Assembly (NCBI GenBank): GCA_052033375.1
Contig: JBPOJQ010000014.1
Span: forward strand, 342 to 64,341
Direction of reading: 5' to 3'
Source of the DNA: Candidatus Magasanikiibacteriota bacterium
GTDB taxonomy: Bacteria; Patescibacteriota; Patescibacteriia; Magasanikbacterales; UBA922
DNA length: 64,000 nt
A program made the position numbers and the translations under genes. Shown piece by piece: positions 10,484 through 60,342 of this stretch (its first letter is position 1; every line of letters starts with the position of its first letter). The notes under the pieces were generated by a model. The model did no database searches, was not told the origin of the DNA, and was given only the letters and a program-made list of their open reading frames with translations.

Positions 10484-11464
10484 TTAATTTTGGGGACGTT
10501 CTTGAAGAGGAAGTATAGGACGAAGTTGTTTCTGCCCTCTACCAGACTCATCTTCTTCACGTTCTTCTTCACGTGCCTCTGTCCGTTTTTCGATTCGTTC
10601 GGACTTGCGTACGTCTTCAGAACTGTCATCTGCTTTTTCTCTTTCTTTAATTTTTTGCTTCAATTCTTCTCTACCTTCTTTTCTCTCCTCAATATTTATT
10701 TTAATCTCGGTGCGACGATCTTCTCGGAGGGTCTGCAATTCTTCTTTTGCAGAATCATCCCCCGATTTTATTCGGTCTAAAAGCACTTTTTGTTCATTTC
10801 TGAATTCTTGTACTTCTTCCACATGATCTTCAATACGAGCCTTCACTTCTTTTAGATGTTCTCGTACTTCTTCAGGGATAGTACTATTTTCAAGCGAATT
10901 CAAAAGTTCTTGTCTTTTTTGCTCTGCCTGCAGACGCATATTTTCTACACGCTCGAGCTGTTCAGGTGTAAGTTTTTTCTCTAATTTTGAGAAAAATTCT
11001 TCTCTATGTTCTTTAAAATTAATTAAATTTTTCAACAAAAGCTTTGCCCGTGCATCTGGATTTTCCAAAAGCTTTTCTTTAACACTATCTGCACGCTCTT
11101 CCAATTCCCCAGCTCGTTTAATCACCCGATCAAGACGTGCTTGCACTTTTGGATCATCTGTCTTTTCCGCCATTTTTTCTGCAATCCGAGTTCGTTCTTC
11201 GGCAAATTTAAGCGCTTTTTCTGCTTTTTTTACCGGATCAAACGTGGTCAGAAGTGACACACGCTCTCGAATACCTAAGAAAAACAAACCCCAACCACTT
11301 ACCTCATCAGATGCTTCTGCCTCTCCGCTGGTAGCAGAGCTGGCGGTTACGTCTGATGAAGTCTCGGTTGTAGTCCCGTCCACTTGCGCCCGAACCAATG
11401 ATGGTGAGCCTACTAATAGGACCCCGAATACTACCACACACACACGATAGATAAACTTATTCAT
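10484..11464 (-). CDS. secreted, highly charged coiled-coil protein
   Basis: 326 aa; N-terminal signal peptide (…VLLVGSPSLVRAQ) then long E/K/R-rich heptad-like region; no enzymatic motif. Confidence 0.5.
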   Translation of the reverse strand: MNKFIYRVCVVVFGVLLVGSPSLVRAQVDGTTTETSSDVTASSATSGEAEASDEVSGWGLFFLGIRERVSLLTTFDPVKKAEKALKFAEERTRIAEKMAEKTDDPKVQARLDRVIKRAGELEERADSVKEKLLENPDARAKLLLKNLINFKEHREEFFSKLEKKLTPEQLERVENMRLQAEQKRQELLNSLENSTIPEEVREHLKEVKARIEDHVEEVQEFRNEQKVLLDRIKSGDDSAKEELQTLREDRRTEIKINIEERKEGREELKQKIKEREKADDSSEDVRKSERIEKRTEAREEEREEDESGRGQKQLRPILPLQERPQN

Positions 11465-11815
11465 AATAATATAGAAAAATATAAGTGATGAAAGCAGCCC
11501 GGGTGGGCTGCTCCACTTCTATCACCTGATAGCGAGACGAGGAACAAAGATAAATACTGCAAGTGCAATAGCTACCCCTGTTGCGAGATAATAATATACT
11601 AAAGAAAACTCAGACTTTACGGCGTCTGTGGCCATATATTTGTGTTGCATATGTTTTTATGTTTGTTTTAAGGCGCAAGATTTTGCGTCTGTACTTTTTT
11701 GTATATTGTATGTTGCAACGTTATATACTATACCACAAAAAAGTGCTTTTGTCAATCCCAAAAAAACTGTTTTATAGAAAAAAAATACTAATTTTGTTAT
11801 GATGTGTGTACATGA

Positions 11816-12220
11816 ATGCCACAAAAAACAAATAGCAAGGAACAAAATACAAAAAATATAATTACTGATGATTATATGATCAGCAAAACCAATCCTTTAT
11901 ACGCAAAAGCTGATTTACTTGCAAAAACAGTGTACAACGTTACCCGATCTTTTCCAAAAGATGAGTCGTATGGGATGACGTCTCAAATACGTCGAGCAGC
12001 ACTGTCAGTTATTCTTAATATTATTGAGGGTTTCGCTCGCCAAGGTCCTGCTGAATACAGGAGATTTCTCATCATTTCATATGGATCACTTAAAGAAACT
12101 GCCTATCTCATAGACTTTGCAGAAGAGCAAGGATATCTTAATGCTACTTCTCATGATAAGCTACTTCTACTTACTGAAGAATTAGGAAAAATACTCTGGT
12201 CTATCATTCATAAATCTTAA
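11816..12220 (+). CDS. four-helix-bundle protein (23S rRNA intervening-sequence protein family)
   Basis: 134 aa; …AKADLLAKTVYNVTRSFPKDESYGMTSQIRRAALSVILNIIEG…SLKETAYLIDFA… matches the widespread 'four helix bundle protein' family. Confidence 0.7.
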   Translation: MPQKTNSKEQNTKNIITDDYMISKTNPLYAKADLLAKTVYNVTRSFPKDESYGMTSQIRRAALSVILNIIEGFARQGPAEYRRFLIISYGSLKETAYLIDFAEEQGYLNATSHDKLLLLTEELGKILWSIIHKS

Positions 12221-12252
12221 TTTGTTTTTTGTTCCTTGCTATTTGCTTTTTT

Positions 12253-13257
12253 ATGCCCACTCTCTCACAATACAAAACTGATTTTCTCGAACATCTCGAA
12301 ATTGAAAAAAATCGAAGTGACAAAACTACCAAAAACTACGATTTTTACCTCAAACGTTTTGTTGAATGGTTCGGGGAAAGCAAAAAACCTTCTGAAATCA
12401 CCTATGAGGATGTTCGTCAATTCAGACTCTGGCTACATAGACTTGTAGACGTACATGGCGAACCTCTCAAAAAAAACACACAGAACTACCACCTGATTGC
12501 ACTCCGAACATTTCTCAAATATCTTGCCAAGCGAGACGTGCCAACGCTCCCAGCAGAAAAAATTGAACTCATGAAGATGCCTGATCGAGAAGTATCTTTT
12601 CTTGACGGAAGTGATCTCAATCGTATCCTTGAAGCTCCACTCAAAAATATTAATACGAAAAAACTTGAGGCAGAAGGAAGTAAGATTTCCGCAGGACCCA
12701 CCCTCTTAATTGCCTATCGAGATAAATCTATTCTCGAATTACTATTTTCTACTGGACTTCGTGTGTCAGAATTGATAAAACTCAAAAAAGATGATGTGAA
12801 TCTGAAACGCGATGAGTTTACCGTTGTCGGTAAAGGACGTAAAGCTCGCGTCGTCTTTCTTTCTGAACAGGCAAAATATTTTCTCAAAAAATATTTAGAT
12901 CTTCGAAATGATATTCACCCTTATCTCTTTGTTTCTCATGACAAACGCACTAACAAACATGAAGTTGCAAAGAATTCCTCAAAAAACACTCCAGATGAAC
13001 CTCTGACTCCACGCTCAGTGCAGCGCCTGGTCCAAAAGCATGCCCGTGAGGCAGGAATAACCAAACCTGTGACTCCTCATACCATGAGGCATTCCTATGC
13101 CACCGATTTGCTCCAAAATGGGGCTGACATACGGAGTGTGCAATCAATGCTTGGACATGCGTCGATTACCACTACCCAAATCTATACCCACATTACTGAC
13201 AAAGAATTGCTTAATATACACAAAAAATTTCATGGAAAGAAACGAAAAGACGATTGA
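12253..13257 (+). CDS. tyrosine site-specific recombinase (XerC/XerD family)
   Basis: C-terminal catalytic motifs …HTMRHSYATDLLQNGADIRSVQSMLGHASITTTQIYTHI…; N-terminal SAM-like core-binding domain; ORF track starts at 12229, MPTLSQYK at 12253 avoids overlap with upstream gene; directly upstream of tRNA-Arg. Confidence 0.85.
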   Translation: MPTLSQYKTDFLEHLEIEKNRSDKTTKNYDFYLKRFVEWFGESKKPSEITYEDVRQFRLWLHRLVDVHGEPLKKNTQNYHLIALRTFLKYLAKRDVPTLPAEKIELMKMPDREVSFLDGSDLNRILEAPLKNINTKKLEAEGSKISAGPTLLIAYRDKSILELLFSTGLRVSELIKLKKDDVNLKRDEFTVVGKGRKARVVFLSEQAKYFLKKYLDLRNDIHPYLFVSHDKRTNKHEVAKNSSKNTPDEPLTPRSVQRLVQKHAREAGITKPVTPHTMRHSYATDLLQNGADIRSVQSMLGHASITTTQIYTHITDKELLNIHKKFHGKKRKDD

Positions 13258-13295
13258 CAAATGATCAGTTTAAGATTACACTCTTCAAGCATTAA

Positions 13296-13368
13296 GAGCC
13301 CATAGTTCAGTGGATAGAACACTAGCCTTCTAAGCTGGATACGCAGGTTCGATTCCTGCTGGGCTCAC
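13296..13368 (+). tRNA. tRNA-Arg (anticodon TCT)
   Basis: Manual cloverleaf: acceptor GAGCCCA/TGGGCTC, D-arm GTTC…GAAC, anticodon stem CTAGC/GCTGG with loop CTTCTAA, T-arm GCAGG TTCGATT CCTGC. Confidence 0.85.
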
Positions 13369-36430: not shown

Positions 36431-37551
36431 CATATGCATTTGAACTCGGGCATCAGCCACACCTGTCAGTAGCTGAAATTATTTCTGTATGTAATCGCTT
36501 ATCCATCTCATACCATTCCGTAACAACCATCGGTTCTTTTTTTGTTATTGAAACGGAAAAACCTCTCGATACCCAGCTCCTCATTCACACATTGGGCGGT
36601 ACGATTCGAATTGCCCAGCACATCGAAACAACAGGTACCGATCTCACGACCATCACACAGCATCTTGAACATACCACCGAAGGAAAAATTCAATTTTCAC
36701 TATCCGGCCCCAATTCCAAATCCCTCGCACTTGAAGTAAAAAAATATTTGAAATCCAACGGGCGTTCAGTCCGATATATTGAATCAAAAAATACAGCTAC
36801 AGTAATTCATAATCATCTAATTGAAAAAAGGGGAGAAATACTGAGCGTTGGGAACGAATGGTATGTGACTGAAGCAATCCAGGATATTGAGTCATTTACC
36901 AAACGTGATTATGACCGTCCGCGGACTGATAGCAGAAGTGGCATGCTCCCACCCAAACTTGCACGAATAATGATAAACCTTGCCGAAGTGCCGACTACGT
37001 CTCACATTCTTGATCCATTTTGCGGATCGGGCACTATTTTGACTGAAGCGTTGTCTCTCGGATATACCCATGTATCTGGATCAGACAATTCAGAGAAGGC
37101 GGTGGAAGATTCAACAGCAAACGTGGGTTGGTTTTTGAAAGAAAAACCACATGACAACGTGCGCACTGCAATCCATCTTGCCTCTGCAACCAAACTAGAA
37201 AATGTACTTAAAAAAGAACGTGTTGATGCAATTATTTCCGAACCATACATGGGAAAGCCGCTGCGCGGACACGAGAGTATTGTTGCTCTTGCTTCTCAGG
37301 CAGCTGAATTAAAAGAGTTATATATCAAAAGTTTTGAATCATTTAAAAAAATACTTTCCCCGACTGGAGTTATCATTTTTATCATTCCTATATTCAAGGC
37401 TGGCACAGAATGGGTGAGAACTAACGCGCAGAGTGAAATCGAAAAACGCGGATTCACCATTATTCCTTTTTCAGAAAAAAATACATCCCTCCTTTATTCA
37501 AGGGATAATCAATTTGTCGGTCGAGAAATCTGGAAATTCAAAAAAACTTGA
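36427..37551 (+). CDS. class I SAM-dependent methyltransferase (UPF0020/Trm11-like, probable RNA or DNA m6A/m2G methylase)
   Basis: …RSGMLPPKLARIMINLAEV…ILDPFCGSGTILTEAL… motif I and …ISEPYMGKPL… (DPPY/NPPY-like motif IV). Confidence 0.65.
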   Translation: MTYAFELGHQPHLSVAEIISVCNRLSISYHSVTTIGSFFVIETEKPLDTQLLIHTLGGTIRIAQHIETTGTDLTTITQHLEHTTEGKIQFSLSGPNSKSLALEVKKYLKSNGRSVRYIESKNTATVIHNHLIEKRGEILSVGNEWYVTEAIQDIESFTKRDYDRPRTDSRSGMLPPKLARIMINLAEVPTTSHILDPFCGSGTILTEALSLGYTHVSGSDNSEKAVEDSTANVGWFLKEKPHDNVRTAIHLASATKLENVLKKERVDAIISEPYMGKPLRGHESIVALASQAAELKELYIKSFESFKKILSPTGVIIFIIPIFKAGTEWVRTNAQSEIEKRGFTIIPFSEKNTSLLYSRDNQFVGREIWKFKKT

Positions 37552-37964
37552 CACCCGCTTCTGTTTCTGGGATTAATAAGTATCAGTGTTCCTACCCACA
37601 ACCCATGAGGTCCACCATGGTCGTACACATTCAGAATGCTCAGAAGAGACTCGCACGCCTCCGAAATACAACTCTCATCGGCGTGATCCTGATAGTGCTC
37701 GTGTTCGGCGGATTACTGATCGCGAGTGTCCGTCACACCCTCGCCGTCGCGAGTGAACTCGACCGACGCCCCGCAATCGGGTACACCGTGTATCGAAGTG
37801 AGAACACCATCATGATCATGAACGTGGACCTCGCCGAGGTCTACTGGTTCACCGACTGCCCGCATCTGGAAGATTATACGAGATACGAAGAAGTCGCCAT
37901 CTATGGTGATCACGAGAACCACTGTCGTGATTGGTATCCTCTCCGCGGGGTTTTGAGGAAGTGA
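37548..37964 (+). CDS. hypothetical membrane protein on a GC-rich islet
   Basis: ORF with strong G/C third-position bias unlike neighbours; TM helix (LIGVILIVLVFGGLLIA) then small Cys/His-containing domain; likely start MRSTMVV ~37605. Confidence 0.4.
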   Translation: MTPASVSGINKYQCSYPQPMRSTMVVHIQNAQKRLARLRNTTLIGVILIVLVFGGLLIASVRHTLAVASELDRRPAIGYTVYRSENTIMIMNVDLAEVYWFTDCPHLEDYTRYEEVAIYGDHENHCRDWYPLRGVLRK

Positions 37965-38019
37965 AGTCCACCCATCTGGCATGTCGCGGTCGACACACAA
38001 CCTACGAGCGAACACTACC

Positions 38020-38085
38020 ATTCACCGCCAACATGCCTTTGTTGGGCCGAAATACTTCGGAGCAGCAAAGGAGGTGTTGACGGTG
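38020..38085 (+). terminator. structured terminator after GC-rich gene
   Basis: CACCGCCAACA…TGTTGACGGTG long stem enclosing two small hairpins, followed by TTTTGTTTAT. Confidence 0.45.
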
Positions 38086-38091
38086 TTTTGT

Positions 38092-38313
38092 TTATAGAGT
38101 TACTTCAACAATTTTCTTCTTTCCTGTTTTTCCTTTGAGGAGTGAAATATTTGATTTTGCAACACTAAAATACTCACTTAAAATTTTAATAAGTTGCTCA
38201 TTTGCCTCCCCATCGACTGGTGATGCAGTGAGACGAATTTGATACTCAGTATCTGAAATTTTCATGACTTCGTTTTTTGATGAACGCGGTTTTACAGTAA
38301 TAGTGAGGCGCAT
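38092..38313 (-). CDS. DUF167/YggU-family protein (UPF0235)
   Basis: 73 aa; …LTASPVDGEANEQLIKILSEYFSVAKSNISLLKGKTGKKK… matches the YggU signature. Confidence 0.7.
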   Translation of the reverse strand: MRLTITVKPRSSKNEVMKISDTEYQIRLTASPVDGEANEQLIKILSEYFSVAKSNISLLKGKTGKKKIVEVTL

Positions 38314-38317: not shown

Positions 38318-38440
38318 ATTCTAAATCCGTGCCTATCTGTCAGATCCGTTAAATCCGTGTTCTATTCTATAACTTTCGCTAAATGGAACACGGATGACAC
38401 GGATTGAACGGATTAACACGGATTTAATTAAATTCTTTTT
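38318..38440. promoter_or_regulatory. array of AATCCGTG / CACGGATT motifs (candidate operator/iteron region)
   Basis: Two direct AAATCCGTG copies and three inverted (A)CACGGAT(T) copies plus GATCCGTTA/GAACGGATT within ~120 bp immediately upstream of the DUF167 gene. Confidence 0.3.
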
Positions 38441-38465: not shown

Positions 38466-39770
38466 CTAATCATGTTTGTGTTCTGGTCTTCCAGTCAATA
38501 CTTTTTCTCTGAGGAAATTGATTACTTTTCGATTTACTAGATAGATGCGTACAGAATCTTGCACCTCTGCTTTATTAAGATTTTCCAAATATTCTGGATG
38601 GTCTTTGTATTCTTTTTTCATTTTTTCGATTTCATTTTTTAGCTCCTCATCACTAACTATGATTTTTTCTTCCCGCGCAATTTGTCTTGACACAAGTGCT
38701 GCTTTTGCACGTTTTGTCGCGGTCTCTGTAAAATCCTTCTGAATATCTTCCTCACTTTTTTTCAAATCAGAGAGGTATTGGTCAATCGTAATTCCATTTT
38801 TTTCTAGATCACGTTTCAATTCATAGAACATTTTTTTTCGTTCAGCATCGATCAACACTTCAGGAATTTCTTCGAATTTTGATTTGTCGATCAGGGCATC
38901 AAACATTTCAATCTCAGCCACTTCATCAGCCTTGTGAAGCGCTTCATGCTCCATATTATTCTGCAATAATTCGCGGAGTTTGATCACACTTTCTTGTCCT
39001 ACTTTTTTTGCAAACTCATCATTCACTTCTGGGAACACACGGGTATACACTTCTTTTACTTTGATTTTGAAATGGCCAGTGTTTCCCGCAAGCATTTTGT
39101 TGTAATAATCTTTTGGAAACGGAATATCAAATTCTTTTTCTTCATCTTTTGAGACACCTATAAGCGCATCATTGAATCCGGGAATGTGCTGATTTTCTGA
39201 GAGATACACCTGATAGTCTTTTGCCTGTCCACCCTCGATTGGCACTCCGTCAAGAAAGAGGTTCATGTCGATCACTACTTTATCTTCCTTGGTAGCCTTA
39301 CCTTCTTTTATCACTTCTGTTGCCTGCATTTTGGTAAGGTTTTCGATAACTGCGTCAATATCAGTCTCAGTTACTGGTTTTGCTTTATGTTCTACTTTTA
39401 TTTTTTCAAGTTTTGGAAGTGTTACTACCGGAAGAATCGCAACCACAGCTTTATACACCAAATCATTACCCGGGGCAATTTTCTCAATAGCAATCTTCGG
39501 CATCCCAATAGTATCCAACTTTTCTTCTGTTACCGCATTATAAAATGTTTCCTGAAGAATATCTTCGAGCGCTTCATTCATTACATGCATTTCACCGATT
39601 TCTCGCTTTACCATGTCGAATGGAGCATGTCCTTTGCGGAAACCTTTGATGGTGGTTCTATTTGAAATCCTTTCAGCTGCTTTTCGCAAATGTTTTTCAT
39701 ATTCAGCAGATGTGACAGTAATTGTTATCTCGATTTCTGAATTTTTGAGTTTTTTATACGTGTGTTCCAT
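38466..39770 (-). CDS. tig: trigger factor
   Basis: …TTIKGFRKGHAPFDMVKRE… TF signature (GFRxGxxP), PPIase middle domain, C-terminal helical arm; 434 aa. Confidence 0.9.
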   Translation of the reverse strand: MEHTYKKLKNSEIEITITVTSAEYEKHLRKAAERISNRTTIKGFRKGHAPFDMVKREIGEMHVMNEALEDILQETFYNAVTEEKLDTIGMPKIAIEKIAPGNDLVYKAVVAILPVVTLPKLEKIKVEHKAKPVTETDIDAVIENLTKMQATEVIKEGKATKEDKVVIDMNLFLDGVPIEGGQAKDYQVYLSENQHIPGFNDALIGVSKDEEKEFDIPFPKDYYNKMLAGNTGHFKIKVKEVYTRVFPEVNDEFAKKVGQESVIKLRELLQNNMEHEALHKADEVAEIEMFDALIDKSKFEEIPEVLIDAERKKMFYELKRDLEKNGITIDQYLSDLKKSEEDIQKDFTETATKRAKAALVSRQIAREEKIIVSDEELKNEIEKMKKEYKDHPEYLENLNKAEVQDSVRIYLVNRKVINFLREKVLTGRPEHKHD

Positions 39771-39835
39771 ATAACATAAATTATGCTTAACAGTTTGCTG
39801 ATTATAGCGAAAGTTAATGAAATTGTCAAAGGTGC

Positions 39836-39958
39836 TTTTACCCTATAAAAACATTCACCCCCGTATCGTATGACACGGGGGTTCGTCGAGTCCGTCGGGC
39901 CAGAAGCGTTGCGCTCCATGAAGCCAGTCTAGACTTGCCTGAACAGGAGTTCAGGACT
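39836..39958. repeat. ~123-bp repeat copy 1 (two hairpins; 3' flank of GC-rich gene)
   Basis: TTTTACCCTATAAAAACATTCACCCCCGTATCGTATGACACGGGGGTTCGTCGAGTCCGTCGGGCCAGAAGCGTTGCGCTCCATGAAGCC…CCTGAACAGGAGTTCAGGA; 120/123 identical to copy 2. Confidence 0.8.
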
Positions 39959-39967
39959 TGTGCGTAC

Positions 39968-40303
39968 TTACTCAAATTCCTTTATGAGTTTTTCCTTCTC
40001 TACCTCCTTTGTCTTCTTGTTTTGGGTATCGTGCACACTAATCATGACCATGCCGAGAACGGCGATGAAGGACATGGTGATCAAAAAGATCCCCATCACC
40101 TTGTCGTGAGTACGAGGATTCTCGTACCCACAGGTCATGTCGAGACCGACGCACAGCATGATGATGTACATCAGTGCACACCAGAGCATGACGAATTTGT
40201 AAGCTGTGTCTTTGCTCTTTTCTCTTCTCTCTTCCGGGTTCATCCTTCCTCCATGATTCCCTGACTTTCGATTTCCGTGACTACCTATTAGTATGCCAAG
40301 CAT
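39968..40303 (-). CDS. hypothetical small membrane protein on a GC-rich islet
   Basis: 111-aa ORF, C/G-ending codon preference, two TM helices, Lys/Glu-rich tail; stop codon abuts repeat copy 1. Confidence 0.4.
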   Translation of the reverse strand: MLGILIGSHGNRKSGNHGGRMNPEERREKSKDTAYKFVMLWCALMYIIMLCVGLDMTCGYENPRTHDKVMGIFLITMSFIAVLGMVMISVHDTQNKKTKEVEKEKLIKEFE

Positions 40304-40455
40304 TTAGCATACCAGTATGTAGTCACGTTATTGCTCTTTGATTGGAAAGGGCTTACTATGTAACAATACAGTATAGCATGAAAAGAAGATTCTGTCAAGA
40401 TATTTATGCAATAATTTCGCTTAACCTAGCAAAATTTTCTCAATTAAGCCTAGGT

Positions 40456-40578
40456 TTTTACCCTATAAAAACATTCACCCCCGTATCGTATGACACGGGG
40501 GTTCGTCGAGTCCGTCGGGCCAGAAGCGTTGCGCTCCATGAAGCCCGCCTGGACTTGCCTGAACAGGAGTTCAGGATT
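40456..40578. repeat. ~123-bp repeat copy 2
   Basis: Same sequence as 39836-39958 with 3 substitutions; terminal hairpin CCTGAACAGGAGTTCAGG followed by ATTTT. Confidence 0.8.
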
Positions 40579-40891
40579 TTGAGTTGCACTCACGATTCAC
40601 CGCGAGATGATCCTCGAGTTTCTCGTCGATCTGGACAATCTCGTCCTCGGTGAACGGCTCACCACGAGCCATGTCGGCGAAGGAATCATCGTGATGAGCT
40701 CCGCTGTACTCCTCACCAGGCTCGTAGTAGTTACCCTTGTCGGTTGAGCTCTCCGGCTCGACTATATCTTCGTCATCCAACCCCTCATACCATAGACGTT
40801 GCCGCTCGAGTTCATCCGCCTCTTCATCGAGCTCCACCTGTGCATCTCGACTCCACTGTGCGAAATTGCTCTGACGCCGATTCTTTCCCAC
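40571..40891 (-). CDS. hypothetical acidic protein on a GC-rich islet
   Basis: 106 aa, D/E-rich, C/G-ending codons; last ~10 nt of CDS lie inside repeat copy 2. Confidence 0.4.
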   Translation of the reverse strand: MGKNRRQSNFAQWSRDAQVELDEEADELERQRLWYEGLDDEDIVEPESSTDKGNYYEPGEEYSGAHHDDSFADMARGEPFTEDEIVQIDEKLEDHLAVNRECNSKS

Positions 40892-41139
40892 GATTCACCC
40901 CTTTACACGGAATGTCTTATACCTGACCCTGTGCCAAGTTTTTTGACACTCTATGTACTGTGTTTTGACAGCCTTCTTTTTGTATATTTTATCTAAAATA
41001 AGCCAAAAAGAAAGCCAAGAAAGATATTATAAAGGACGATTTTGAACTAGAAAATATACCATATTTAAGCCATTTTGTCAAGGCTTTTATGCTATTTTTA
41101 CCTAAAATTAGCCACACGTACTATATTTTTCTATAAAAA

Positions 41140-41175
41140 CATGAACCTCTGCACCAGTATATACCAGCGCAGAGG
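41140..41175. terminator. bidirectional hairpin terminator
   Basis: CCTCTGC-ACCAGTATATACCAG-CGCAGAGG flanked by ATGTTTTTATAG on one side and CTTTTTCC on the other. Confidence 0.45.
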
Positions 41176-41191
41176 CTTTTTCCTCCTATGT

Positions 41192-41632
41192 CTAATGTGT
41201 GATGATCCTACGGATGGATGCGAGCCACCCTGGCGGCAGCCGCGGAGGCCCCCATCCAGGACGTATGCAGACGAGACTCAGGTCGGTGTAGAGGACGCCG
41301 TTCATCCGATGCCTCGAATCTGCACCTGGAATCTCTGGTGTCACACTGTACAGAGGCCACGTGTAGCCCGTGATACTGATGATCCTCTCGTTCACAGGCG
41401 TGACATCCTCGATATAGATGACATGCCCCCCCACCCGATTGCGTGGATTCCCGTAGACAGTGATCCTCGCCCTCGGGACGAAGTCTGTGGGAACATAGAA
41501 TCCCCAGACATCGAACGAACTGTAGAAAAACCTGTCACAGACACCCATACACACCCCCTTGCAGTACGAATCAGAACACCAGTAACAAAAAATACACCTG
41601 CATATCTGGCTTGTCAAGGATATATCTCTCAT
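41192..41632 (-). CDS. hypothetical protein on a GC-rich islet
   Basis: 146-aa minus-strand ORF; strand preferred over overlapping plus-strand 202-aa ORF because of downstream terminator and beta-rich rather than P/R/D low-complexity translation; Cys-rich N-terminus may be an over-extension. Confidence 0.3.
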   Translation of the reverse strand: MRDISLTSQICRCIFCYWCSDSYCKGVCMGVCDRFFYSSFDVWGFYVPTDFVPRARITVYGNPRNRVGGHVIYIEDVTPVNERIISITGYTWPLYSVTPEIPGADSRHRMNGVLYTDLSLVCIRPGWGPPRLPPGWLASIRRIITH

Positions 41633-41738
41633 ATTTCAGTTCCATTTGGGCATATTGTCGCCACCATTCGGTGCGATATCTAATTTTCAGGTTTCAGGAA
41701 CCACAAAACCTGCTATACTATCTCTACCTAATATTCTT

Positions 41739-44417
41739 ATGCCAAAAACCAATAAAACAGTCGTCATAATAGATGGAAATGCCATCATCCACCGCGCATA
41801 CCATGCCCTCCCCCCGCTCACAGCCCCAGATGGGACCCTCGTGAATGCTGTTTATGGATTTGCGTCTATGCTCCTCAAAGTCATGGCAGATCTGAAGCCT
41901 GACTATCTGGTAACTACGTTTGACGTCGCTGGTGGAACATTTCGTGATGAAATCTATACTGAATACAAAGCAACACGTGTCAAAGCTGAGCAATCACTCT
42001 ATGATCAAATTCCGCTAGTTCATGAACTGGTTAAAGGTTTTAATGTTCCAATTTATACGAAGGCAGGATTTGAGGCTGATGATCTTATTGGCACGGTCGC
42101 AAAAAAAATTACAGCAGACCATAAAGATATCACCTGTATTGTGGTGACAGGTGATAAAGACTTATTGCAACTTGTCGATGATAATAAAATCGAAGTATAT
42201 CTTCTCAAAAAAGGAATGTCCGAGTTTGAGTTGTTTAACGAAGCACATGTACAGGAAAAATTCGGATTCTCGCCAATTCAAATGATTGATTACAAATCTC
42301 TTCGCGGAGATACTTCTGATAATATTCCCGGAGTAAAAGGTATCGGAGAAAAAACCGCAACAGAACTCATCACACATTTCGGATCACTCGAAAAAATTTA
42401 TACTGCGCTCAAAAAAGAAGATACAAAAATATCTGCAAGTGTGCAAAAAAAATTAACCGAAGGATACGAGTCGGCATTGATGAGCAAAAAACTTGCAACG
42501 ATTGATACCAATGTTCCAGACATCGAATATTCACTTACTGAAATGCACACAACCTCATACAAACGAGAGGATGTGATTGAGTTGTTCAAAAAATTTGGTT
42601 TTTATTCTCTGGTAAAGCGCCTGTCGGGCGGAGAATCTGTTGTGGAAGAAAAAAAATTCAAGAAAAAAGAAAAAAAACTGAAGGTTGGTGATGTTACCCT
42701 AGTCGACACCAAAAATATTTCTGAACTTAACGCACTTTTAAAAAAATACAAAATCTGTGCATGCAGACCATTGTTCCAAAATGAATCTGGAAACGTACTC
42801 ACGTCTCCATGTACAGGTATCGTATGCGTGGTTGGCGGGGATGCATGGCAAATTCCTTTTTCTCTATTTCCAAAAATTCAGTTTAATACCAAAGATATTA
42901 CCATTGTCGGGCATGATGTGAAACAATTCGTAAAACTGTACATGCACGAAGGAATAGAGTTCAAAGCAAAACTTTTTGATGTCATGATTGCATCATATCT
43001 TCTCAACTCAAGTACACGAGCACACGACATGGAATCAATTGCGATTCGTGAATTAGGAATTGAACTTCCTAATACGGATCAATCCTCACTATTTGGAATT
43101 GACCCGAAGCTTGTCGCAACTGAACTTTCAGCAATGCTCCAGGTACAAGAAAAATATGATACAGCACTCTCCAGTGAAGCAGACAAAGGATTATTTGAGG
43201 ATGTAGAGATGGCCCTTATTCCTGTCTTGGCACACATGGAGCTTGCTGGGGTTGCAATTGATCTTCCTCTCTTGGGACAGTTATCAGAAAAAATCGCAAA
43301 GACAATCAAAGAGCTTGAACAGAAAATCTGGAAAGAAGCTGGAAAAGAATTCAATGTGGCATCTTCAACACAACTTCGTGATATTTTATTTGAGACATTG
43401 CAGTTACCAACCGACATGATCAAAAAAGGTAAGACCGGTTATTCTACTGCCGCAAGTGAACTCGAAAAATTACGAGAAATACACCCAGTTATACCTTTTA
43501 TTGAAGAATATCGTGAAGTTGAAAAACTGCGAAATACCTATATTGATGTATTACCAACACTTATCAATCCAAAAACTGGACGCATTCACACAACCTTCAA
43601 TCAAGCAATCGCTGCGACAGGCCGTCTTTCAAGTATTGACCCGAATTTACAAAATATTCCAATTAGAACTGAATTGGGGAAAGATGTACGCAAAGCATTT
43701 ATTGCAGACAAGGGAAACAAACTAATTTCAGCTGATTATTCCCAGATTGAACTCCGTATCGTGGCTTCTCTTGCGAATGATCTGAAAATGATTGAAATAT
43801 TTAAAAAGGGCGAGGATATTCATACGGCGACAGCTGCAGCAATTCACAATATTCCACTCGATAAAGTCACCAAGGACATTCGGAGATCAGCAAAAGAAGT
43901 AAATTTTGGTGTTCTTTATGGGATGGGTGCCTTTGGACTTGCTTCTCGAACCGGCATAACTCAATTTGAAGCAAAGGACTTTATTAAAAAATATTTTGAA
44001 ACGTTTTCTGGTGTAAAAGCATACCTAGATAATACACTTGAAGAAGCAAAAAAAACTGGATATGTAGAAACATTATTTGGTCGCAAACGGTATGTGCCAG
44101 AATTACAATCACCAAATAGACAAATCCAGGCAGCCGGAGAACGTATGGCAATCAATATGCCAATACAAGGAACCGCAGCTGATCTTATGAAAATGGCAAT
44201 GATCGCGGTATACCACGCACTTAAAAAAGAAAAATTACTTGATACACATGCTCGAATGACGCTTCAAATACATGATGAACTCGTCCTTGAGGTTGAGGAA
44301 ACATACGCTAAAACGGTTGCAGAGATTGTACAAGCAGAAATGCAAAATGTTGCAAAATTACGTGTACCGATTGACGTGGGTGTTGAAATTGGGGATCGAT
44401 GGGGAGAGATGAAATAG
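41739..44417 (+). CDS. polA: DNA polymerase I
   Basis: 5'-3' exonuclease domain (VVIIDGNAIIHRAYHALP…), polymerase motifs A (…LISADYSQIELRI…), B (RRSAKEVNFGVLYGMGAFGL) and C (…QIHDELVLEV…); ORF track start 41646, ATG at 41739 gives the conserved N-terminus. Confidence 0.9.
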   Translation: MPKTNKTVVIIDGNAIIHRAYHALPPLTAPDGTLVNAVYGFASMLLKVMADLKPDYLVTTFDVAGGTFRDEIYTEYKATRVKAEQSLYDQIPLVHELVKGFNVPIYTKAGFEADDLIGTVAKKITADHKDITCIVVTGDKDLLQLVDDNKIEVYLLKKGMSEFELFNEAHVQEKFGFSPIQMIDYKSLRGDTSDNIPGVKGIGEKTATELITHFGSLEKIYTALKKEDTKISASVQKKLTEGYESALMSKKLATIDTNVPDIEYSLTEMHTTSYKREDVIELFKKFGFYSLVKRLSGGESVVEEKKFKKKEKKLKVGDVTLVDTKNISELNALLKKYKICACRPLFQNESGNVLTSPCTGIVCVVGGDAWQIPFSLFPKIQFNTKDITIVGHDVKQFVKLYMHEGIEFKAKLFDVMIASYLLNSSTRAHDMESIAIRELGIELPNTDQSSLFGIDPKLVATELSAMLQVQEKYDTALSSEADKGLFEDVEMALIPVLAHMELAGVAIDLPLLGQLSEKIAKTIKELEQKIWKEAGKEFNVASSTQLRDILFETLQLPTDMIKKGKTGYSTAASELEKLREIHPVIPFIEEYREVEKLRNTYIDVLPTLINPKTGRIHTTFNQAIAATGRLSSIDPNLQNIPIRTELGKDVRKAFIADKGNKLISADYSQIELRIVASLANDLKMIEIFKKGEDIHTATAAAIHNIPLDKVTKDIRRSAKEVNFGVLYGMGAFGLASRTGITQFEAKDFIKKYFETFSGVKAYLDNTLEEAKKTGYVETLFGRKRYVPELQSPNRQIQAAGERMAINMPIQGTAADLMKMAMIAVYHALKKEKLLDTHARMTLQIHDELVLEVEETYAKTVAEIVQAEMQNVAKLRVPIDVGVEIGDRWGEMK

Positions 44418-44546
44418 AGTCGAAAGTTACAAGAGAATTCTGTATTTTGACTTTATAAACTTTACGACTTTACAGGTTTTCGATTTAAATGAAACAGCCA
44501 GGGTACATGAAAGCGTTTGACGCCGTCAGTGTCCCTGGCAATTGAT

Positions 44547-44990
44547 TCAGGCCTCCGATCGATACTTCCGGAAAATATTGACGAAGTACTTCTCCGCCGA
44601 CATTCCCCGTAGTTCGACCACCCGAACCCCGAGTGTCTTTGCTTCGCGCTTCTCCTTTTCCCGAAATTCGGGATCGAGCCCCTCGAAGCTGGTCACGACC
44701 GTAACCTTTTTCCCACGACCATTGAGGTCTTTGAGGATCCGGCGAACCAGAAGCCATGATTGCTCTCGCGTCGCGCATGCCTGCTCCACGTCTCCGACGT
44801 AGACATACACCGCATCAGCTCGGGCAAGCTCGTGACGATTGAAGTTCCTGTAGATGAGCTGGGGATCGTCCCACTCACCAGGTTTTCTCTCGTACGAATG
44901 CACCACGAGCGTATCGTTGTGACGTGTGTATTGCTTGTGTCCTGCCGGCACTTCCGGCACGACTCCGAATGTCACAATCATCTCGAACAC
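44547..44990 (-). CDS. hypothetical protein on a GC-rich islet (Rossmann-like alternating strand/helix pattern)
   Basis: 147-aa ORF, GC-rich codons; …ADAVYVYVGDV… and …KKVTVVTSFEG… strands; AGGA-like RBS before second Met; hairpin GCCAGGG…CCCTGGC downstream. Confidence 0.45.
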   Translation of the reverse strand: MFEMIVTFGVVPEVPAGHKQYTRHNDTLVVHSYERKPGEWDDPQLIYRNFNRHELARADAVYVYVGDVEQACATREQSWLLVRRILKDLNGRGKKVTVVTSFEGLDPEFREKEKREAKTLGVRVVELRGMSAEKYFVNIFRKYRSEA

Positions 44991-45140
44991 ATATCCTCGT
45001 TTCTCACGTATGCGTCAGGAAAGCACATGCTCGTTGGAACAATAGTCCACCGAACTTTTGTTCCTTATCCTGTGGCAGACGCAAGTCTATGTCCACTCCT
45101 CCTTTACCAGTGGACTGTAATTTGACTATACCAAAAAAAG

Positions 45141-53275: not shown

Positions 53276-53320
53276 TCTTTTCAGTTTCTTTTCTACACAC
53301 ACCCCTTCAAGGTGGGAAGA

Positions 53321-53605
53321 ATGTACGAATTTCTTGTTTCGGCAGTCCTTATCGCTATCGCCGTCGATGTAGCTCGATACATCATCGAGCGCGTCGATGC
53401 AGATCGAACTCTCAAGAGCGTCGAAGACGCCGTCTCCCCTCCGCCGAAAGATAAAGTCGACGATATGGTGAGCTGGTTCTTCGCCCAAGAAGATCCCGTC
53501 AAAGACGTTCATCGTCCACACATGCGTTCTCCTCGGAGAAGAAGGTGTGACCGATACCAACGTCGCAGACCCCACGTGCCGTCCACGTCATGGAGGTGGC
53601 ACTAG
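53321..53605 (+). CDS. hypothetical small protein on a GC-rich islet (TM helix plus Arg-rich tail)
   Basis: MYEFLVSAVLIAIAVDV… GC-rich codons; two perfect palindromes (GGTGGCACTAGTGCCACC; GTGTCCCAGG…CCTGGGACAC) follow the stop. Confidence 0.4.
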   Translation: MYEFLVSAVLIAIAVDVARYIIERVDADRTLKSVEDAVSPPPKDKVDDMVSWFFAQEDPVKDVHRPHMRSPRRRRCDRYQRRRPHVPSTSWRWH

Positions 53606-53766
53606 TGCCACCTATCGACTCCTCCCCGTGTCCCAGGTTCGTTCGCACACCGAATGAGCCTGGGACACCTACTTCAAAGATTTCAATAATCTTTTTTTTA
53701 TTATATAAGGTTTGATTTTTTCTATCTCTTCTGTTACACTCCGCAATACAAAACTAACTTGTTATT

Positions 53767-54840: not shown

Positions 54841-55037
54841 GAAAGTCAAAGTTTAAAACACACACGTAAAGAGATAATATACATACACTGTGAAATTAAA
54901 AAACCGCCCTCCCATTCGAGGTGCGGTTTTATTTTAGGATTTCGTTCTAATTTTCAGAACTCATCAGTTCACGTTTCACATGAAGATCCTTTGGAGCCAG
55001 CTCGACCTAGTGTCGAGTCTGACTCCGCGTAACATTG

Positions 55038-55751
55038 TCACGGCGCTCGGGTGAGTACCACACGCACTGGCTTGGTGAGGTACACCCCTTTTGGATTGCC
55101 CCCTCCATCAGGCCAATATTCGACGATCACCCCACCTGCGTGGCCATCGAGAAGCACTCCTCCACCGAATGATTCGACCAAACTCACCTCGAAGCTCTGT
55201 TCGACGACATCTTTCTCAAAGGGAAAGTCCCGCCACCAGATGTTGAGGAAGAATTCGAGTGAATCTCCCTCCGCAAGACCGTCGGTATCCCCGTCGATCA
55301 TGCCGTAGGCGTGGTCGACCTGAACACCTGCGCTGTACCACCAGCCACGGTACCTGTTCTCCTCACCCTCAGGGAGATGACTCAGGTGCATATCCGGCAG
55401 TCCGAAGATTGAGTACTCACCTTCTTCCTCCCATTGGACCTTGAAGCCCACGCCGTGGAAGTTCAGGTTCGTACACCCACGGATCTCGACCTTCATGACC
55501 ACAGTGTCCATGGCCATGTCTGGATCGTCTGGGATCTCGACCCTGACTTCGTCCTCCGCGATCGTGCGGACGATGTAGTCGATACCCTCCGGGCACCCAG
55601 AGGTGATCTCTTCCGAGGAGTCGGAAGGTAGCACCGTTTCTACTGCGTCCAGATGTGCATCCTCACGCTTGACGCCACCCTCCCGAGCTTCGAGACAGGC
55701 GACGTTCATGATGGCAACGGCGGCGAAGACGATGGTAACGATAGAATTCAT
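55038..55751 (-). CDS. hypothetical secreted protein on a GC-rich islet
   Basis: 237 aa; signal peptide MNSIVTIVFAAVAIMNVACLEA; acidic beta-rich body; strong G/C third positions. Confidence 0.45.
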   Translation of the reverse strand: MNSIVTIVFAAVAIMNVACLEAREGGVKREDAHLDAVETVLPSDSSEEITSGCPEGIDYIVRTIAEDEVRVEIPDDPDMAMDTVVMKVEIRGCTNLNFHGVGFKVQWEEEGEYSIFGLPDMHLSHLPEGEENRYRGWWYSAGVQVDHAYGMIDGDTDGLAEGDSLEFFLNIWWRDFPFEKDVVEQSFEVSLVESFGGGVLLDGHAGGVIVEYWPDGGGNPKGVYLTKPVRVVLTRAP

Positions 55752-55854
55752 GAGAACACTCCTTGGGCCATGAGGCCTCGTTTGGTTGACACGGAATAAT
55801 ATACATCATAAAAAGAGCATTTTGTCAATGCTCCACGACCTCTGTTGTATACTT

Positions 55855-56872: not shown

Positions 56873-57056
56873 ACAAAATTGCTCCTTAAGAAGTTATTTA
56901 ATAAATATACTATACACTATTTTTTGTGTTTTGTCAAGAAAAAATCTCTAATTTTAGTGAATTTAGGAGCACTGCGCCAAACCCGTGCATCCAGTCCGAA
57001 GACCGTGATGTCAAAAGTTGGCGCAGCGCTACGAAAGAGTTCCCTCTTGCCCCCCC

Positions 57057-57332
57057 CTAGCGGACGAGTGGGTACCGGAAGAACAGGGTGTATGCACCAG
57101 GAGGCACACGCGGAATCGTCCCCTCGGCATGAGGAGGAATTCTCGTCGTCTCAGCGATCGCCTTCGGCGACTCTCCGTGCCGGACCACACAGCACTCCAG
57201 ATGATGGCTCCTGTGGTTCGTCACGACAGCTTCTCCCCCTTCGTTCACAACCACCGCAACTCTCCCATAGTCATGGGCCGTGCGGCCGGGCTTGCCGAGC
57301 CTCAGACTACTCCATCGTTCTAGATTCGACAT
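57057..57332 (-). CDS. hypothetical small protein on a GC-rich islet in the rpmH-dnaA spacer
   Basis: 91-aa minus ORF with AGAGGAA RBS 5 nt before ATG and TTGACA…TACTAT-like promoter upstream; preferred over overlapping plus-strand S/P/R-rich ORFs. Confidence 0.35.
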   Translation of the reverse strand: MSNLERWSSLRLGKPGRTAHDYGRVAVVVNEGGEAVVTNHRSHHLECCVVRHGESPKAIAETTRIPPHAEGTIPRVPPGAYTLFFRYPLVR

Positions 57333-57470
57333 GCGGTTCCTCTTGCGTGAGTTGGGTTTTCTCCCCGTACATACCCCTAATTCAGGAGTACTTTAGAGAT
57401 GAACGATAGTAAACACAAAAAAAGCTTAGTTGTCAATAATTTTAATTTCAGGCATACTAGTTTCTCCCAC

Positions 57471-57579: not shown

Positions 57580-58968
57580 ATGACTAATTACGAAATTTGG
57601 CAATCAGTACTTGCTGAATTTGAACTCACACTTTCTAAAGCAAACTTTACCACCTGGTTCAAAAATACAGGCATTTCTCAATATGAGAATAGTAACGTAA
57701 TTGTCTGTGTTCCCAATGCATTTACGAAAAGTTGGCTTGAAAAAAAATATCACACAACAATAGTAAAAATCCTAGAACGTGTCACCGGCAAACCAGTAAA
57801 AAAAATCGACTACATCGTTGATAACGTCAGAAATATCAAAGAACAAGAGTGTACTCCTACCTCTGCTGAAGCTTTCAAAGTTCCCTCTCTTCACGCTTCA
57901 ATCGCTCAAGTACCCAAAAAAGCCTTGCTGGTACAACAGTTTGGGCTTAACCCAAAATACATATTTGAAACTTTTGTAGTTGGTAAAGGAAATGAGCTCG
58001 CTCATGCTGCGGCACAGGCGGTTGCCTCGAGACCAGGCGATGCGTATAACCCACTATTTATCTACGGCGGTGTCGGACTTGGTAAAACCCACCTAATTCA
58101 GGCTATCGGACACACCATGCTTGCTACCAATCCTAACGTAAAAATTCTGTACGTTAGTTCAGAAAAATTTACAAATGAATTTGTCTCGTCAGTCAAAGAG
58201 GGTCGTGCCAAAGAATTCAAAGATCGATATAGAAATGTCGATTTACTTCTTATCGATGATATTCAATTTATTGGTGGCAAAGAACAAACCCAAGAGGAAT
58301 TCTTCCACACCTTCAATGAGCTCCATCAACAAGGTAAACAGGTAGTAATGACGAGTGATCGTCCACCAAAAGCTATTCCTGCCCTTGAAGACCGTCTACG
58401 TAGCCGATTTGAGTGGGGAATGATTGCAGATGTTTCACCTCCTGATCTTGAGACACGTATTGCGATTATTCAAAAAAAGGCCCAGGAGCGTCAATTTCCT
58501 ATTTCTTCTGACATACAGACCCTCATTGCAGCTAATATTCAGAGTAATATACGCGAACTTGAAGGTGCTCTCAATAAAATAATTGCCTTCCATGAATTAA
58601 AAAATACCACCCCAACAGAAGAATCTATTCGTCATATTCTTTCTAGTTTCCAGGAGCAGAACATGCGCCGTTCGCTCACCCCAAAAGACTTGATTGAGGA
58701 GGTTAACAAATTTTACGATATCAAATTGGAAGACACTCTAGGTAAAAGCAGAGAAAAACGTTTTGCGTTTCCACGCCAAGTCATCATGTATCTTATGAGA
58801 GAAGAGTTAAAACTCTCGTACCCGAGTATTGGCGAAGAACTCGGAGGCCGTGATCACACTACTGCCATGCACGCGCATTCCAAAATTGTTTCAGAAATTG
58901 AAAATGATCTGAAATTACGACAGGATGTGGAGCTTATTAAGCAACGGTTATACACAAACAAAATTTAA
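57580..58968 (+). CDS. dnaA: chromosomal replication initiator protein DnaA
   Basis: AAA+ Walker A …IYGGVGLGKTHLIQAIGH…, Walker B …LLLIDDIQF…, C-terminal DnaA-box-binding HTH (…VIMYLMREELKLSYPSIGEELGGRDHTTAMHA…). Confidence 0.95.
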   Translation: MTNYEIWQSVLAEFELTLSKANFTTWFKNTGISQYENSNVIVCVPNAFTKSWLEKKYHTTIVKILERVTGKPVKKIDYIVDNVRNIKEQECTPTSAEAFKVPSLHASIAQVPKKALLVQQFGLNPKYIFETFVVGKGNELAHAAAQAVASRPGDAYNPLFIYGGVGLGKTHLIQAIGHTMLATNPNVKILYVSSEKFTNEFVSSVKEGRAKEFKDRYRNVDLLLIDDIQFIGGKEQTQEEFFHTFNELHQQGKQVVMTSDRPPKAIPALEDRLRSRFEWGMIADVSPPDLETRIAIIQKKAQERQFPISSDIQTLIAANIQSNIRELEGALNKIIAFHELKNTTPTEESIRHILSSFQEQNMRRSLTPKDLIEEVNKFYDIKLEDTLGKSREKRFAFPRQVIMYLMREELKLSYPSIGEELGGRDHTTAMHAHSKIVSEIENDLKLRQDVELIKQRLYTNKI

Positions 58969-59214
58969 TTTCTGTGCATAAACCAGCGAAAAAGTGTATA
59001 TAAGCTGGTACACAGAGGTGGAGTAATTAAATGTTTTCCACAAGCTGACTTCAACATGTTATTTCTGTACAGGTTCTATCACTGTTGACCGCACTGTCTA
59101 TCCACAATACAAAATTAAAATTTTCTCTGTAATTAGCCCAAAAATCAACTTATCCACCTTATTCACAGTCTCTACTATTATCTACTAGTTTATATTATAT
59201 AAAGAGATACAAAT
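58969..59214. promoter_or_regulatory. candidate oriC (DnaA boxes plus AT-rich unwinding element) between dnaA and dnaN
   Basis: TTTTCCACA, TATCCACAA, TTATCCACC, TTATTCACA then AT-rich …TTTATATTATATAAAGAGATACAAAT…. Confidence 0.5.
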
Positions 59215-60342
59215 ATGAAACTAACATCCACAAGAGAAAATTTATTATATAGTTTGGATATTGCAAATACATTTGCGGGGAAACATGCAAATTTACCCAT
59301 TCTACAAAATATACTTATTCGAGCACATGAATCTGGTGTAGAAATAAGTGCCACTAATCTTGAAGTTTCAATCAAAACACACATCCGTGCAAAAGTAGAA
59401 ATACCTGGTTCGTTTACTGTACCTGCAAAAACAATCACCGAATATGTACGATTATTAACAAATGATCAGGTAGAGTTGACTCTTGAGGGTACTGAGTTGG
59501 TAATTCGTTCTGCTGGTTCTGAAACAAAAATAAAAGGATTTCCTGCTGAAGAGTTCCCGGTGATTCCAGGGATAGAGGAAGGAAATACCTATCTTATACA
59601 TGCTGAAACCTTGAGACAAACAATTGCAAAAGTGGCTATTTCTTGTGCTAAGAATGAGATCCGTCCAGAATTTTCAGGTGTGTATTGTCGGTTTAAAAGT
59701 GAACGTTATGATGGATTGATAATGGCAGCAACTGACTCGTATCGACTTTCTGAAGCTCGTGTACCTATTGCTCAGGGAGGAGAGGGGGAAATGAGCTGCA
59801 TCATACCTGGTCGGGTTGCTCAGGAAATCGCTCGTTTAATACAGTTTGGTCGACAGCATGAGGGAGAGGAACATGTGCGAATGACCGTGAGCGCAAATCA
59901 AATTTCGATTCGTTATGATATGTTTGAAATGGTGAGTCGACTCATTGAGGGGAGATATCCAGATTATACACAAATAATCCCAACAACCTTTAAAACACAG
60001 GCCACCTTCCATGTATCAGAGCTTGTGAATAAAATAAAGGCGGCAAGTCTGTTTTCTACTGCCGGGGTGAACGCAATTTCTTTTCAATTGGATTCTCAAA
60101 AAAAACAATTGGGTGTGTCTTCGACTAGTGCACAAACCGGTGCACATACTTCCTATATTGATACAGAAGTAACCGGTGATCACATGACGGTGTTGCTCAA
60201 TTTTCGATACGTATTGGATGGACTTCAACAAATCGAAGAGGACGAAGCGCTCATGCAGATAAATTCTCCTGATGCACCGTGTCTCATACGTGTACCCGGA
60301 AATGAGACTTTTCAATATATCGTGATGCCAATACGGCAGTAA
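59215..60342 (+). CDS. dnaN: DNA polymerase III beta sliding clamp
   Basis: 375 aa; three-domain beta-clamp pattern; immediately downstream of dnaA. Confidence 0.9.
   Translation: MKLTSTRENLLYSLDIANTFAGKHANLPILQNILIRAHESGVEISATNLEVSIKTHIRAKVEIPGSFTVPAKTITEYVRLLTNDQVELTLEGTELVIRSAGSETKIKGFPAEEFPVIPGIEEGNTYLIHAETLRQTIAKVAISCAKNEIRPEFSGVYCRFKSERYDGLIMAATDSYRLSEARVPIAQGGEGEMSCIIPGRVAQEIARLIQFGRQHEGEEHVRMTVSANQISIRYDMFEMVSRLIEGRYPDYTQIIPTTFKTQATFHVSELVNKIKAASLFSTAGVNAISFQLDSQKKQLGVSSTSAQTGAHTSYIDTEVTGDHMTVLLNFRYVLDGLQQIEEDEALMQINSPDAPCLIRVPGNETFQYIVMPIRQ

Follow-up and report, generated by a model that had tools for sequence, protein, structure and literature searches.

We analysed a pair of direct repeats, each copy of which we call E, in a 64-kb stretch of DNA (the window) whose trigger-factor homologues are named Candidatus Magasanikbacteria, a lineage of the Patescibacteria or Candidate Phyla Radiation (CPR). 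Both copies lie in the spacer between the genes polA and tig, directly 3' of two GC-rich open reading frames (ORFs) on the minus strand, which we call gene1 and gene2. E is probably a conserved 3' untranslated region (3'UTR) and terminator, and was most likely duplicated when a unit carrying gene1 was stacked into the polA-tig spacer. The repeat is explained without a new kind of system, by a lineage-restricted 3'UTR/terminator motif and a duplication through recombination.

The repeated element and its fold

A repeat search and a direct comparison place copy 1 at 39836-39959 and copy 2 at 40456-40579, that is, 124 nt each with a start-to-start spacing of 620 bp. The copies agree at 120 of 124 positions, and the four mismatches are at 39926/40546, 39928/40548, 39931/40551 and 39957/40577. 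The original prediction, made from the sequence alone, had described two near-identical repeats with 120 of 123 positions identical; the repeats are indeed real and direct, and the count was off by one, as the span given there has 119 identical positions of 123. Between 38000 and 43000 the E pair is the only repeat family longer than 26 nt that the repeat search found. Since every other repeat in this region has at most 26 nt, E is far above chance. The flanks of the two copies are unrelated on both sides, except for a possible ACCT match after a 2-nt indel.

The TATAAAA box and the two hairpins that had been noted inside each copy sit where they had been placed. The box (CTATAAAAAC) is found at 39843-39852 in copy 1 and at 40463-40472 in copy 2. 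The hairpin CCCCCGT...ACGGGGG (39857-39882 and 40477-40502) has a stem of 11 bp, not 7, and the hairpin CCTGAAC-AGGA-GTTCAGG is at 39938-39955 and 40558-40575. We also found the ATTTT 3' of the latter hairpin, which of the two window copies only copy 2 possesses. The stop codon of gene2 (40571-40573) is inside copy 2, and that of gene1 (39968-39970) is outside copy 1 by 8 nt.

Homologues of gene2 led to related contigs (labelled L007, L008 and so on), and in L007/L008, L011 and L009/L010 there is a single E right after gene2, to which copy 2 of the window is orthologous. We aligned the five distinct E sequences, which come from four independent lineages, in gene-sense orientation. Their consensus fold has three helices, P1, P2 and P3, with 35 pairs in total. 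The copies and their helices are listed below; the bit scores are those of the covariance-model match.

39836..39959, minus strand: E copy 1, putative structured 3'UTR/terminator element, 3' of gene1 and directly upstream of the tig promoter (149.8 bits)
40456..40579, minus strand: E copy 2, 3' of gene2, overlapping its last three codons and the stop codon (154.6 bits)
39938..39955, minus strand: P1 of copy 1, 7 bp with the loop UCCU (copy 2: 40558-40575, holding the gene2 stop codon TGA)
39889..39936, minus strand: P2 of copy 1, three-part stem of 5+6+6 bp (17 bp); its internal loop UCAU/U is invariant (copy 2: 40509-40556)
39843..39882, minus strand: P3 of copy 1, predicted 11-bp GC-rich terminator hairpin (39857-39882) and the tail GAAUGUUUUUAUAG (39843-39856) (copy 2: 40463-40502)

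Standard pairs make up 96% of the 174 pair cells of the alignment, and six pairs have changed on both sides. For example, P1 has one compensatory change from A-U to G-C in L009, and P3 has changes from U-A to C-G in L011 and L009. The region of P2 holds three of the four differences between the window copies. None of 500 shuffles attained these values, and controls slid along the sequence were only 24-46% paired.

Both strands were folded and compared for covariation, and the minus strand was favoured: the covariation term of RNAalifold is -1.4 there, against +1.4 for the plus strand. Where only one side of a stem has changed, the result is a G-U pair in minus-strand RNA but an A-C mismatch when the plus strand is read. 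Furthermore, the folding z-scores of the gene-sense strand (-3.6 to -6.3) are lower than those of the antisense strand in 5/5 pairs, and terminator-like sites were called on the minus strand at 39882-39857 and 40502-40477.

L011 and L009 have 1-nt indels that interrupt the ORF running across E; a coding potential was therefore ruled out, and E is non-coding. A scan for tRNA and tmRNA gave no match at the repeats, and Rfam gave none at its gathering thresholds, nor at an E-value of up to 10 (E<=10) over 39700-41300.

We read E as the structured 3' end of a small-gene mRNA, closed by a putative intrinsic terminator that would lie some 14 nt upstream of the -35 box of tig. A GC-rich stem-loop with a U-tract is present on the sense strand just 3' of the coding sequence (CDS), and the structure is conserved through compensatory change in the four lineages. 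The TATAAAA on the plus strand is the complement of the U-tract of the minus-strand terminator. In the mRNA, P1 would fold at the stop codon, P2 would form a long stem and P3 would serve as the terminator with its U-tract. E would stop the transcription of the small accessory gene just ahead of the consensus promoter of tig, and the stacked helices at the 3' end would probably shield the small-gene mRNA. A role of E as the leader of tig was ruled out, since the tig promoter is downstream of the E terminator.

Intrinsic terminators with structured 3'UTRs share with E the sense-strand GC-rich hairpin and U-tract right after the CDS, the extra upstream helices, the stems kept by compensatory change and the position just ahead of the next promoter. 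On the other hand, E is unusually long and conserved with its 35 pairs in three helices, it has the conserved tail ATGTTTTTATAGGGTA and a U-tract at a distance of 5 nt from the stem, and its 124-bp copy is common to two unrelated genes.

One copy in the relatives, two in the window

The original prediction had proposed a small mobile or selfish module. We ran the covariance model of E over 226 kb of related DNA and found only the known copies, two in the 64 kb and one orthologous copy per relative, besides weak matches in L014 and L015-L019, which score about 22 bits and sit at the orthologous position. A consensus pattern that fits all five E variants had one chance match in the metagenome collection, on a contig with 68% GC. 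Two patterns gave no E in viral contigs, and blastn of 39800-41200 against phages and plasmids gave no match. In summary, apart from the two window copies and one orthologue per relative, the search in 226 kb of related DNA and in public collections yielded no further copy of E. On this sample E appears to be a locus-specific resident rather than a dispersed mobile module.

How the window came to have two copies can be seen from the alignment to L007. Positions 6487-10430 of L007 align to 44427-40459 of the window, positions 10313-12164 align to 39956-38104, and the two blocks overlap on one single E of L007. It follows that the window has an extra 620 bp, made up of one E, gene1 and its promoter. 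L008 and L011 have a single E too, and in L007/L008 and L011 the order is gene2, one E and tig, without gene1. The two copies of the window share 97% identity with each other and only 89% with the E of L007, so that the line of the window had split from that of L007 before E was duplicated or its copies were homogenised. Parsimony and the identity of the copies suggest that gene1 was gained in the window rather than lost elsewhere.

All four differences between the copies (4/4) fall into the gene-proximal 37 nt, for which we calculate a chance probability of (37/124)^4, or about 0.008. This clustering suggests a crossover inside E. Upstream of gene1, the 68 nt at 40388-40455, including the -35 box, align to L020, L011 and L014, where they match the polA-proximal part of the spacer and the promoter; the local alignment scores are 40, 33 and 31, as compared to shuffled maxima of 27-29. 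Since this stretch matches the spacer promoter of the relatives, we take the gene1 unit for another allele of that spacer; the anchor E is repeated on both sides of the insert, as in allele stacking. The non-homologous junction reads GGGTAAAA|ACCTAGGCT, where the relatives have ..AAAA(N)CTAGGCT; it would be compatible with a microhomology join with the tail of E. Searching the window and the relatives with blastn and tblastx for an origin of the 496-bp insert gave nothing beyond the spacer homology.

We propose that E would be a resident of the polA-tig spacer in a narrow clade of Candidatus Magasanikbacteria, and that a second promoter-gene1-E unit, from an alternative allele of the spacer, may have been stacked in tandem beside gene2-E by a recombination anchored by homology in E. 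The route may have been homology-facilitated illegitimate recombination, a process described before (PMC3240628), or a single crossover with a circularised fragment. For the T6SS (type VI secretion system) immunity arrays in Vibrio cholerae, allele stacking through homology-facilitated illegitimate recombination was proposed (PMC5361080). The T6SS orphan immunity arrays, and likewise Rhs arrays and those of contact-dependent inhibition (CDI), resemble our case in that an alternative allele is added in tandem and the anchor is repeated (PMC5361080). In contrast to these arrays, where the constant part of a coding gene acts as anchor, our case has a non-coding 3'UTR/terminator in that role and carries just one small orphan gene as cargo; the host belongs to the CPR, and we infer the mechanism from one junction.

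The repeat alone would be a by-product of recombination around a terminator-type RNA element, and it opens no new class. E itself would be an unannotated, structurally conserved RNA motif of a CPR lineage, without a match in Rfam; to our knowledge, almost no non-coding RNAs have been described in the CPR. The locus would also be an example of the gain of an orphan gene without the loss of the resident gene, with a regulatory element as the homology anchor.

Weighing the alternatives

Several points weigh against our reading. The covariation is backed by four independent lineages only. The plus strand also folds well, with z-scores down to -5.5, and for this reason the call of the strand rests on the asymmetry of G-U and A-C and on the context. 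The U-tract begins 5 nt past the P3 stem, which is a non-ideal geometry for a terminator; the termination, the 3'UTR status and the stability of the RNA are all properties that we infer from the sequence. The genome collection was searched with a 21-mer, giving six chance matches in high-GC genomes without similarity in the flanks, and this 21-mer is window-specific and blind to an E of the L007 type (GGCCCGACGGACTCGACGAAC in the window, GGCCCGTCGGGCTCGACGAAC in L007). Illegitimate recombination in one step would by itself leave the anchor unduplicated, so that one has to postulate either a circular intermediate or a recipient in replication. There is also the reverse history to consider, in which the two-unit array gene2-E-gene1-E is ancestral, the relatives have lost gene1 by a deletion between the E copies and the identity of the copies is due to gene conversion. 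The single E of the relatives is the exact product expected from such a deletion. Direct repeats of such a size are prone to deletion, and so would be 124-bp repeats around 496 bp. However, gene1 has no homologue elsewhere (it found itself alone among 5.8 billion and 1.84 billion proteins), it is missing from every related spacer sampled, and its promoter region resembles alleles of the same spacer rather than a diverged neighbour. We consider an ancestral array to be quite improbable.

The original prediction had offered two functions for the repeats. According to the one, each repeat encodes a small RNA (sRNA) on the plus strand, cis-antisense to the adjacent gene in the style of type I toxin-antitoxin loci. 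A TATAAA 15 nt after TTGTCA in copy 1 (read by eye), the hairpin with AUUUU in copy 2 and L007, and the small, hydrophobic product of gene1 would fit such an RNA. However, no plus-strand promoter was called, and its -35 box would fall outside the repeat, where it differs between the copies. The plus-strand terminator would be P1, the U-run of which is not conserved, being absent in copy 1, L011 and L009, and the plus-strand stems pick up A-C mismatches, hence the covariation term of +1.4. Type I toxins are small hydrophobic peptides of usually less than 60 aa, whereas the conserved partner of E is gene2, whose acidic soluble protein of 106 aa is no toxin-like peptide, and gene1 encodes 91 aa. 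An antisense RNA is thus hardly credible. It is easier to imagine, although still unlikely, that the 3'UTR gives rise to a stable gene-sense sRNA, made of E or of its 3' part and acting in trans, which would refine our reading and not replace it; the duplication would then double the dose of the sRNA. E differs from that of L007 by 11%, as compared to a synonymous divergence (pS) of 0.53-0.59 in the flanking core genes, and both GCUUCAUGG and the UCAU/U loop are invariant in all variants. CpxQ and SroC are 3'UTR-derived sRNAs which share the terminator of the mRNA; the terminator end of E resembles such known sRNAs, and E, like them, is a conserved structured mRNA 3' end. On the other hand, processing, seed and targets are features of the CpxQ/SroC type for which E offers no evidence: a promoter or processing signal for an sRNA was not identified in E, a cursory look at the neighbouring start regions gave no target complementarity, and the invariant stretch is mostly base-paired.

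According to the other function, the repeats are boundary sites of cassettes, analogous to the attC sites of integrons. This holds in so far as E marks the boundary of small-gene units and a recombination at or in E best accounts for the common 3' flank of unrelated genes; the features of attC are missing. The attC repeats of V. cholerae, with 123-126 bp, are like E in their length, in their place at the 3' end of small unrelated genes of the same orientation, and in being flanking direct repeats. In contrast to attC, E is not one end-to-end imperfect hairpin but has three independent helices and unpaired ends (in minimum-free-energy and consensus folds), GTTRRRY and RYYYAAC are absent from its boundaries and with them the R'/R'' core sites, neither IntI nor attI nor Pc is present, every unit comes with a promoter of its own, and other units of the spacer are without E. 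In 820 bp there is a single GTTAAGC/GCTTAAC, against about 1.6 that we estimate to be expected by chance; it lies some 30 nt away from E, in the gene1 spacer. No integron integrase was found among the 20 larger window ORFs scanned, nor in the gene tables of the syntenic loci, which list no tyrosine recombinase either. The sole tyrosine recombinase among these 20 ORFs, at 12229-13257, reaches 133.9 bits on the integron-integrase model, which has a cutoff of 265; it is of the Xer type and 27 kb away. A site that is attC-like only in function, at which an Xer-type or unknown recombinase moves small cassettes, would fit with the 620-bp unit being bracketed by direct E repeats, with a unit order that varies between relatives, with the perfect 7-bp palindrome of P1 at a gene boundary, and with the near-identical gene3-gene2 tract shared with L007 (see below), which ends inside P1. 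This last coincidence is expected, however, as the upstream genes differ and homology must begin at E, and the gene3 unit and the units of L013-L020 lack P1 and P2. We therefore regard such a site as very unlikely, and place as little weight on the wider proposal that the polA-tig spacer is a dedicated cassette-exchange site through which small GC3-rich orphan genes pass from one species to another, with the hairpin-rich E, its P1 placed at the stop codon, as the recombination site in an integron-like system that has no IntI and uses an enzyme of the Xer type or an unknown one. Finally, E could be a dispersed repeat, such as a miniature inverted-repeat transposable element (MITE), a repetitive extragenic palindrome (REP) or a Correia-type repeat, with two copies in the window by chance. 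It is hairpin-rich, about 124 bp long, intergenic and located at gene 3' ends. Against this, terminal inverted repeats are lacking (3/20 matches), the unrelated flanks show no target-site duplication, there are two copies in 64 kb and one orthologue per relative in 226 kb, and the viral, metagenome and genome scans gave chance matches only. We give a dispersed repeat next to no credence.

The Xer-type recombinase itself (12229-13368; best models XerD, XerC and XerA) is located immediately upstream of a tRNA-Arg(TCT).

The polA-tig spacer and its surroundings

The window has a GC content of 41%. A scan for promoters and terminators divides the minus strand of the spacer into three autonomous units (gene3, gene2 and gene1), with the tig promoter behind them. 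A strong sigma70-like promoter on the minus strand (TTGACA-17-TATAAT-like) belongs to each unit. The features are the following.

41646-44417, plus strand: polA, one border of the spacer that holds the repeats
41144..41617, minus strand: gene3 unit, with promoter 41617-41589, CDS 41192-41548, terminator hairpin 41144-41177 and the tail CATGTTTTTATAG at 41131-41143
40892..41143, minus strand: gene2 promoter at 41081-41053 with its long 5'UTR, both kept in L007, L011, L009 and L020
40571..40891, minus strand: gene2, a 106-aa acidic protein with three homologue clusters; in the relatives the gene ahead of the single E
40244..40455, minus strand: gene1 upstream region, with promoter TTGACA-17-TATACT at 40398-40370, a 5'UTR palindrome at 40276-40327 and the 68-nt spacer-homologous stretch at 40388-40455
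39968..40243, minus strand: gene1, a 91-aa orphan, cargo of the extra 620-bp unit; ribosome-binding site (RBS) and ATG as read from the sequence
39801..39829, minus strand: tig promoter, TTGACA-17-TATAAT, 12/12 match to the consensus
38466-39770, minus strand: tig, the other border of the spacer

The tig promoter starts about 14 nt past the U-tract of E copy 1 and 7 nt past the end of the repeat, and it is conserved in L007, L011, L013, L014, L015 and L020. The GC content at third codon positions (GC3) is 0.67 for gene1, 0.61 for gene2 and 0.67 for gene3, whereas tig and polA have 0.31-0.33; the minus-strand frames are confirmed by these values, and the small genes stand apart as a distinct class.

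The two minus-strand GC-rich genes that had been described in front of the repeats are thus both there. For gene1, the start is likely to be the ATG at 40243 (91 aa) and not position 40303, because this ATG is preceded by an RBS and a database protein, P0004, has exactly the length of 91 aa. By eye, the sequence of gene1 may be read as that of a protein with two transmembrane segments. The inverted repeat in its 5'UTR (40276-40327), between promoter and RBS, has 24-nt arms that are 83% complementary and separated by a 4-nt gap; this palindrome could be an operator or a 5' hairpin. The in-frame indels of gene2 and its ratio of non-synonymous to synonymous substitution rates (dN/dS) of 0.4-0.5 in four lineages indicate that it is coding. 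The protein of gene3 is 34% identical to a 132-aa protein of L013, and gene3 is missing from L011 and L009.

Searches of the small proteins against Pfam and NCBIfam gave sub-threshold membrane-protein noise only, PADLOC gave no match and PHROGs one weak match. Exact-protein look-ups of the window genes returned no record. The spacer units resemble phage morons in that each brings a promoter and a terminator, is atypical in GC content and may be present in one genome and absent from a close relative. Unlike morons, they sit among chromosomal housekeeping genes rather than in a prophage, and viral relatives of the small spacer proteins were not found.

In the relatives the spacer holds other small GC-rich genes. 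The spans in question are 39771-41645 in the window, 1-589 in L013, 7291-8000 in L014, 9390-10000 in L015 and 9237-10000 in L020. L013 has a gene similar to gene3 next to tig, and L014, L015-L019 and L020 have unrelated genes. These spacer orphans are GC3-rich, and each is framed by a sigma70-like promoter and a hairpin terminator of its own. The units follow one another in a different order from genome to genome, and several of the orphans read as small membrane proteins from their sequence. The units of L013, L014 and L015-L019 end in a hairpin and a tail similar to TTTTTATAG (TTTTATTATAG in L013, TTTTTATAA in L015), and the unit of L020 ends in a hairpin and a plain T-run without this tail. 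Within the 64-kb window the TTTTTATAG tail occurs five times; three of these five occurrences come after a terminator-like hairpin, all of them in this spacer.

A spacer promoter and about 110 nt of 5'UTR (40930-41081, minus strand) are kept in L007, L011, L009 and even L020, where the CDS behind them encodes an unrelated membrane protein. It seems that the coding part may be swapped between constant regulatory flanks in this spacer.

The small genes and their surroundings differ in how far they have diverged. Between the window and L007 the synonymous divergence is 0.53 for tig and 0.59 for polA, whereas it is 0.00 for gene2 and 0.012 for gene3; this difference suggests that the small genes were exchanged very recently between genomes that otherwise belong to different species. 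The near-identical gene3-gene2 tract extends over 40572-41620 in the window and 9278-10317 in L007, and it ends inside P1 of E. The block points to either a very recent exchange across species or chimerism of the metagenome-assembled genome (MAG). E, like tig and polA, appears to be resident rather than exchanged. We can rule out that E travels with gene2 as a unit, since gene2 is 98.4% identical to that of L007 and E only 89%, so that the two have different histories. Furthermore, E is probably under constraint, as it diverges by 11% compared to about 55% at neutral sites.

A recorded gene call of 157 aa on the polA strand covers the gene3 region in L007 (9230-9703) and L008 (5570-6043). This call is probably on the wrong strand, because the opposite ORF has a promoter, a terminator, a GC3 of 0.67 and a homologue in L013.

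The cassette spacer around the repeat, with its apparent recent exchange between species, is more interesting than the repeat itself. It is a variable site beside essential genes, in which small genes are near-identical though the core genes have diverged by about 55% at synonymous sites. The spacer could be useful for the study of gene flow and of the turnover of orphan genes in uncultivated, possibly naturally competent CPR bacteria.

Elsewhere in the window, an imperfect inverted repeat with 45-nt arms lies at 38322-38426 between tig and a DUF167-like gene; it is built of ATCCGTG/CACGGAT heptads, about four per arm. Islands of about 50-54% GC are found at 37541-38110, 44471-45100, 53281-53710, 54901-55840 and 56921-57430. 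The first of them contains a conserved 138-aa gene (37548-37964) with a GC3 of 0.64, so not all GC-rich genes of the window are variable. The genes dnaA and dnaN are present at 57580-60342, and the window thus adjoins a likely origin of replication.

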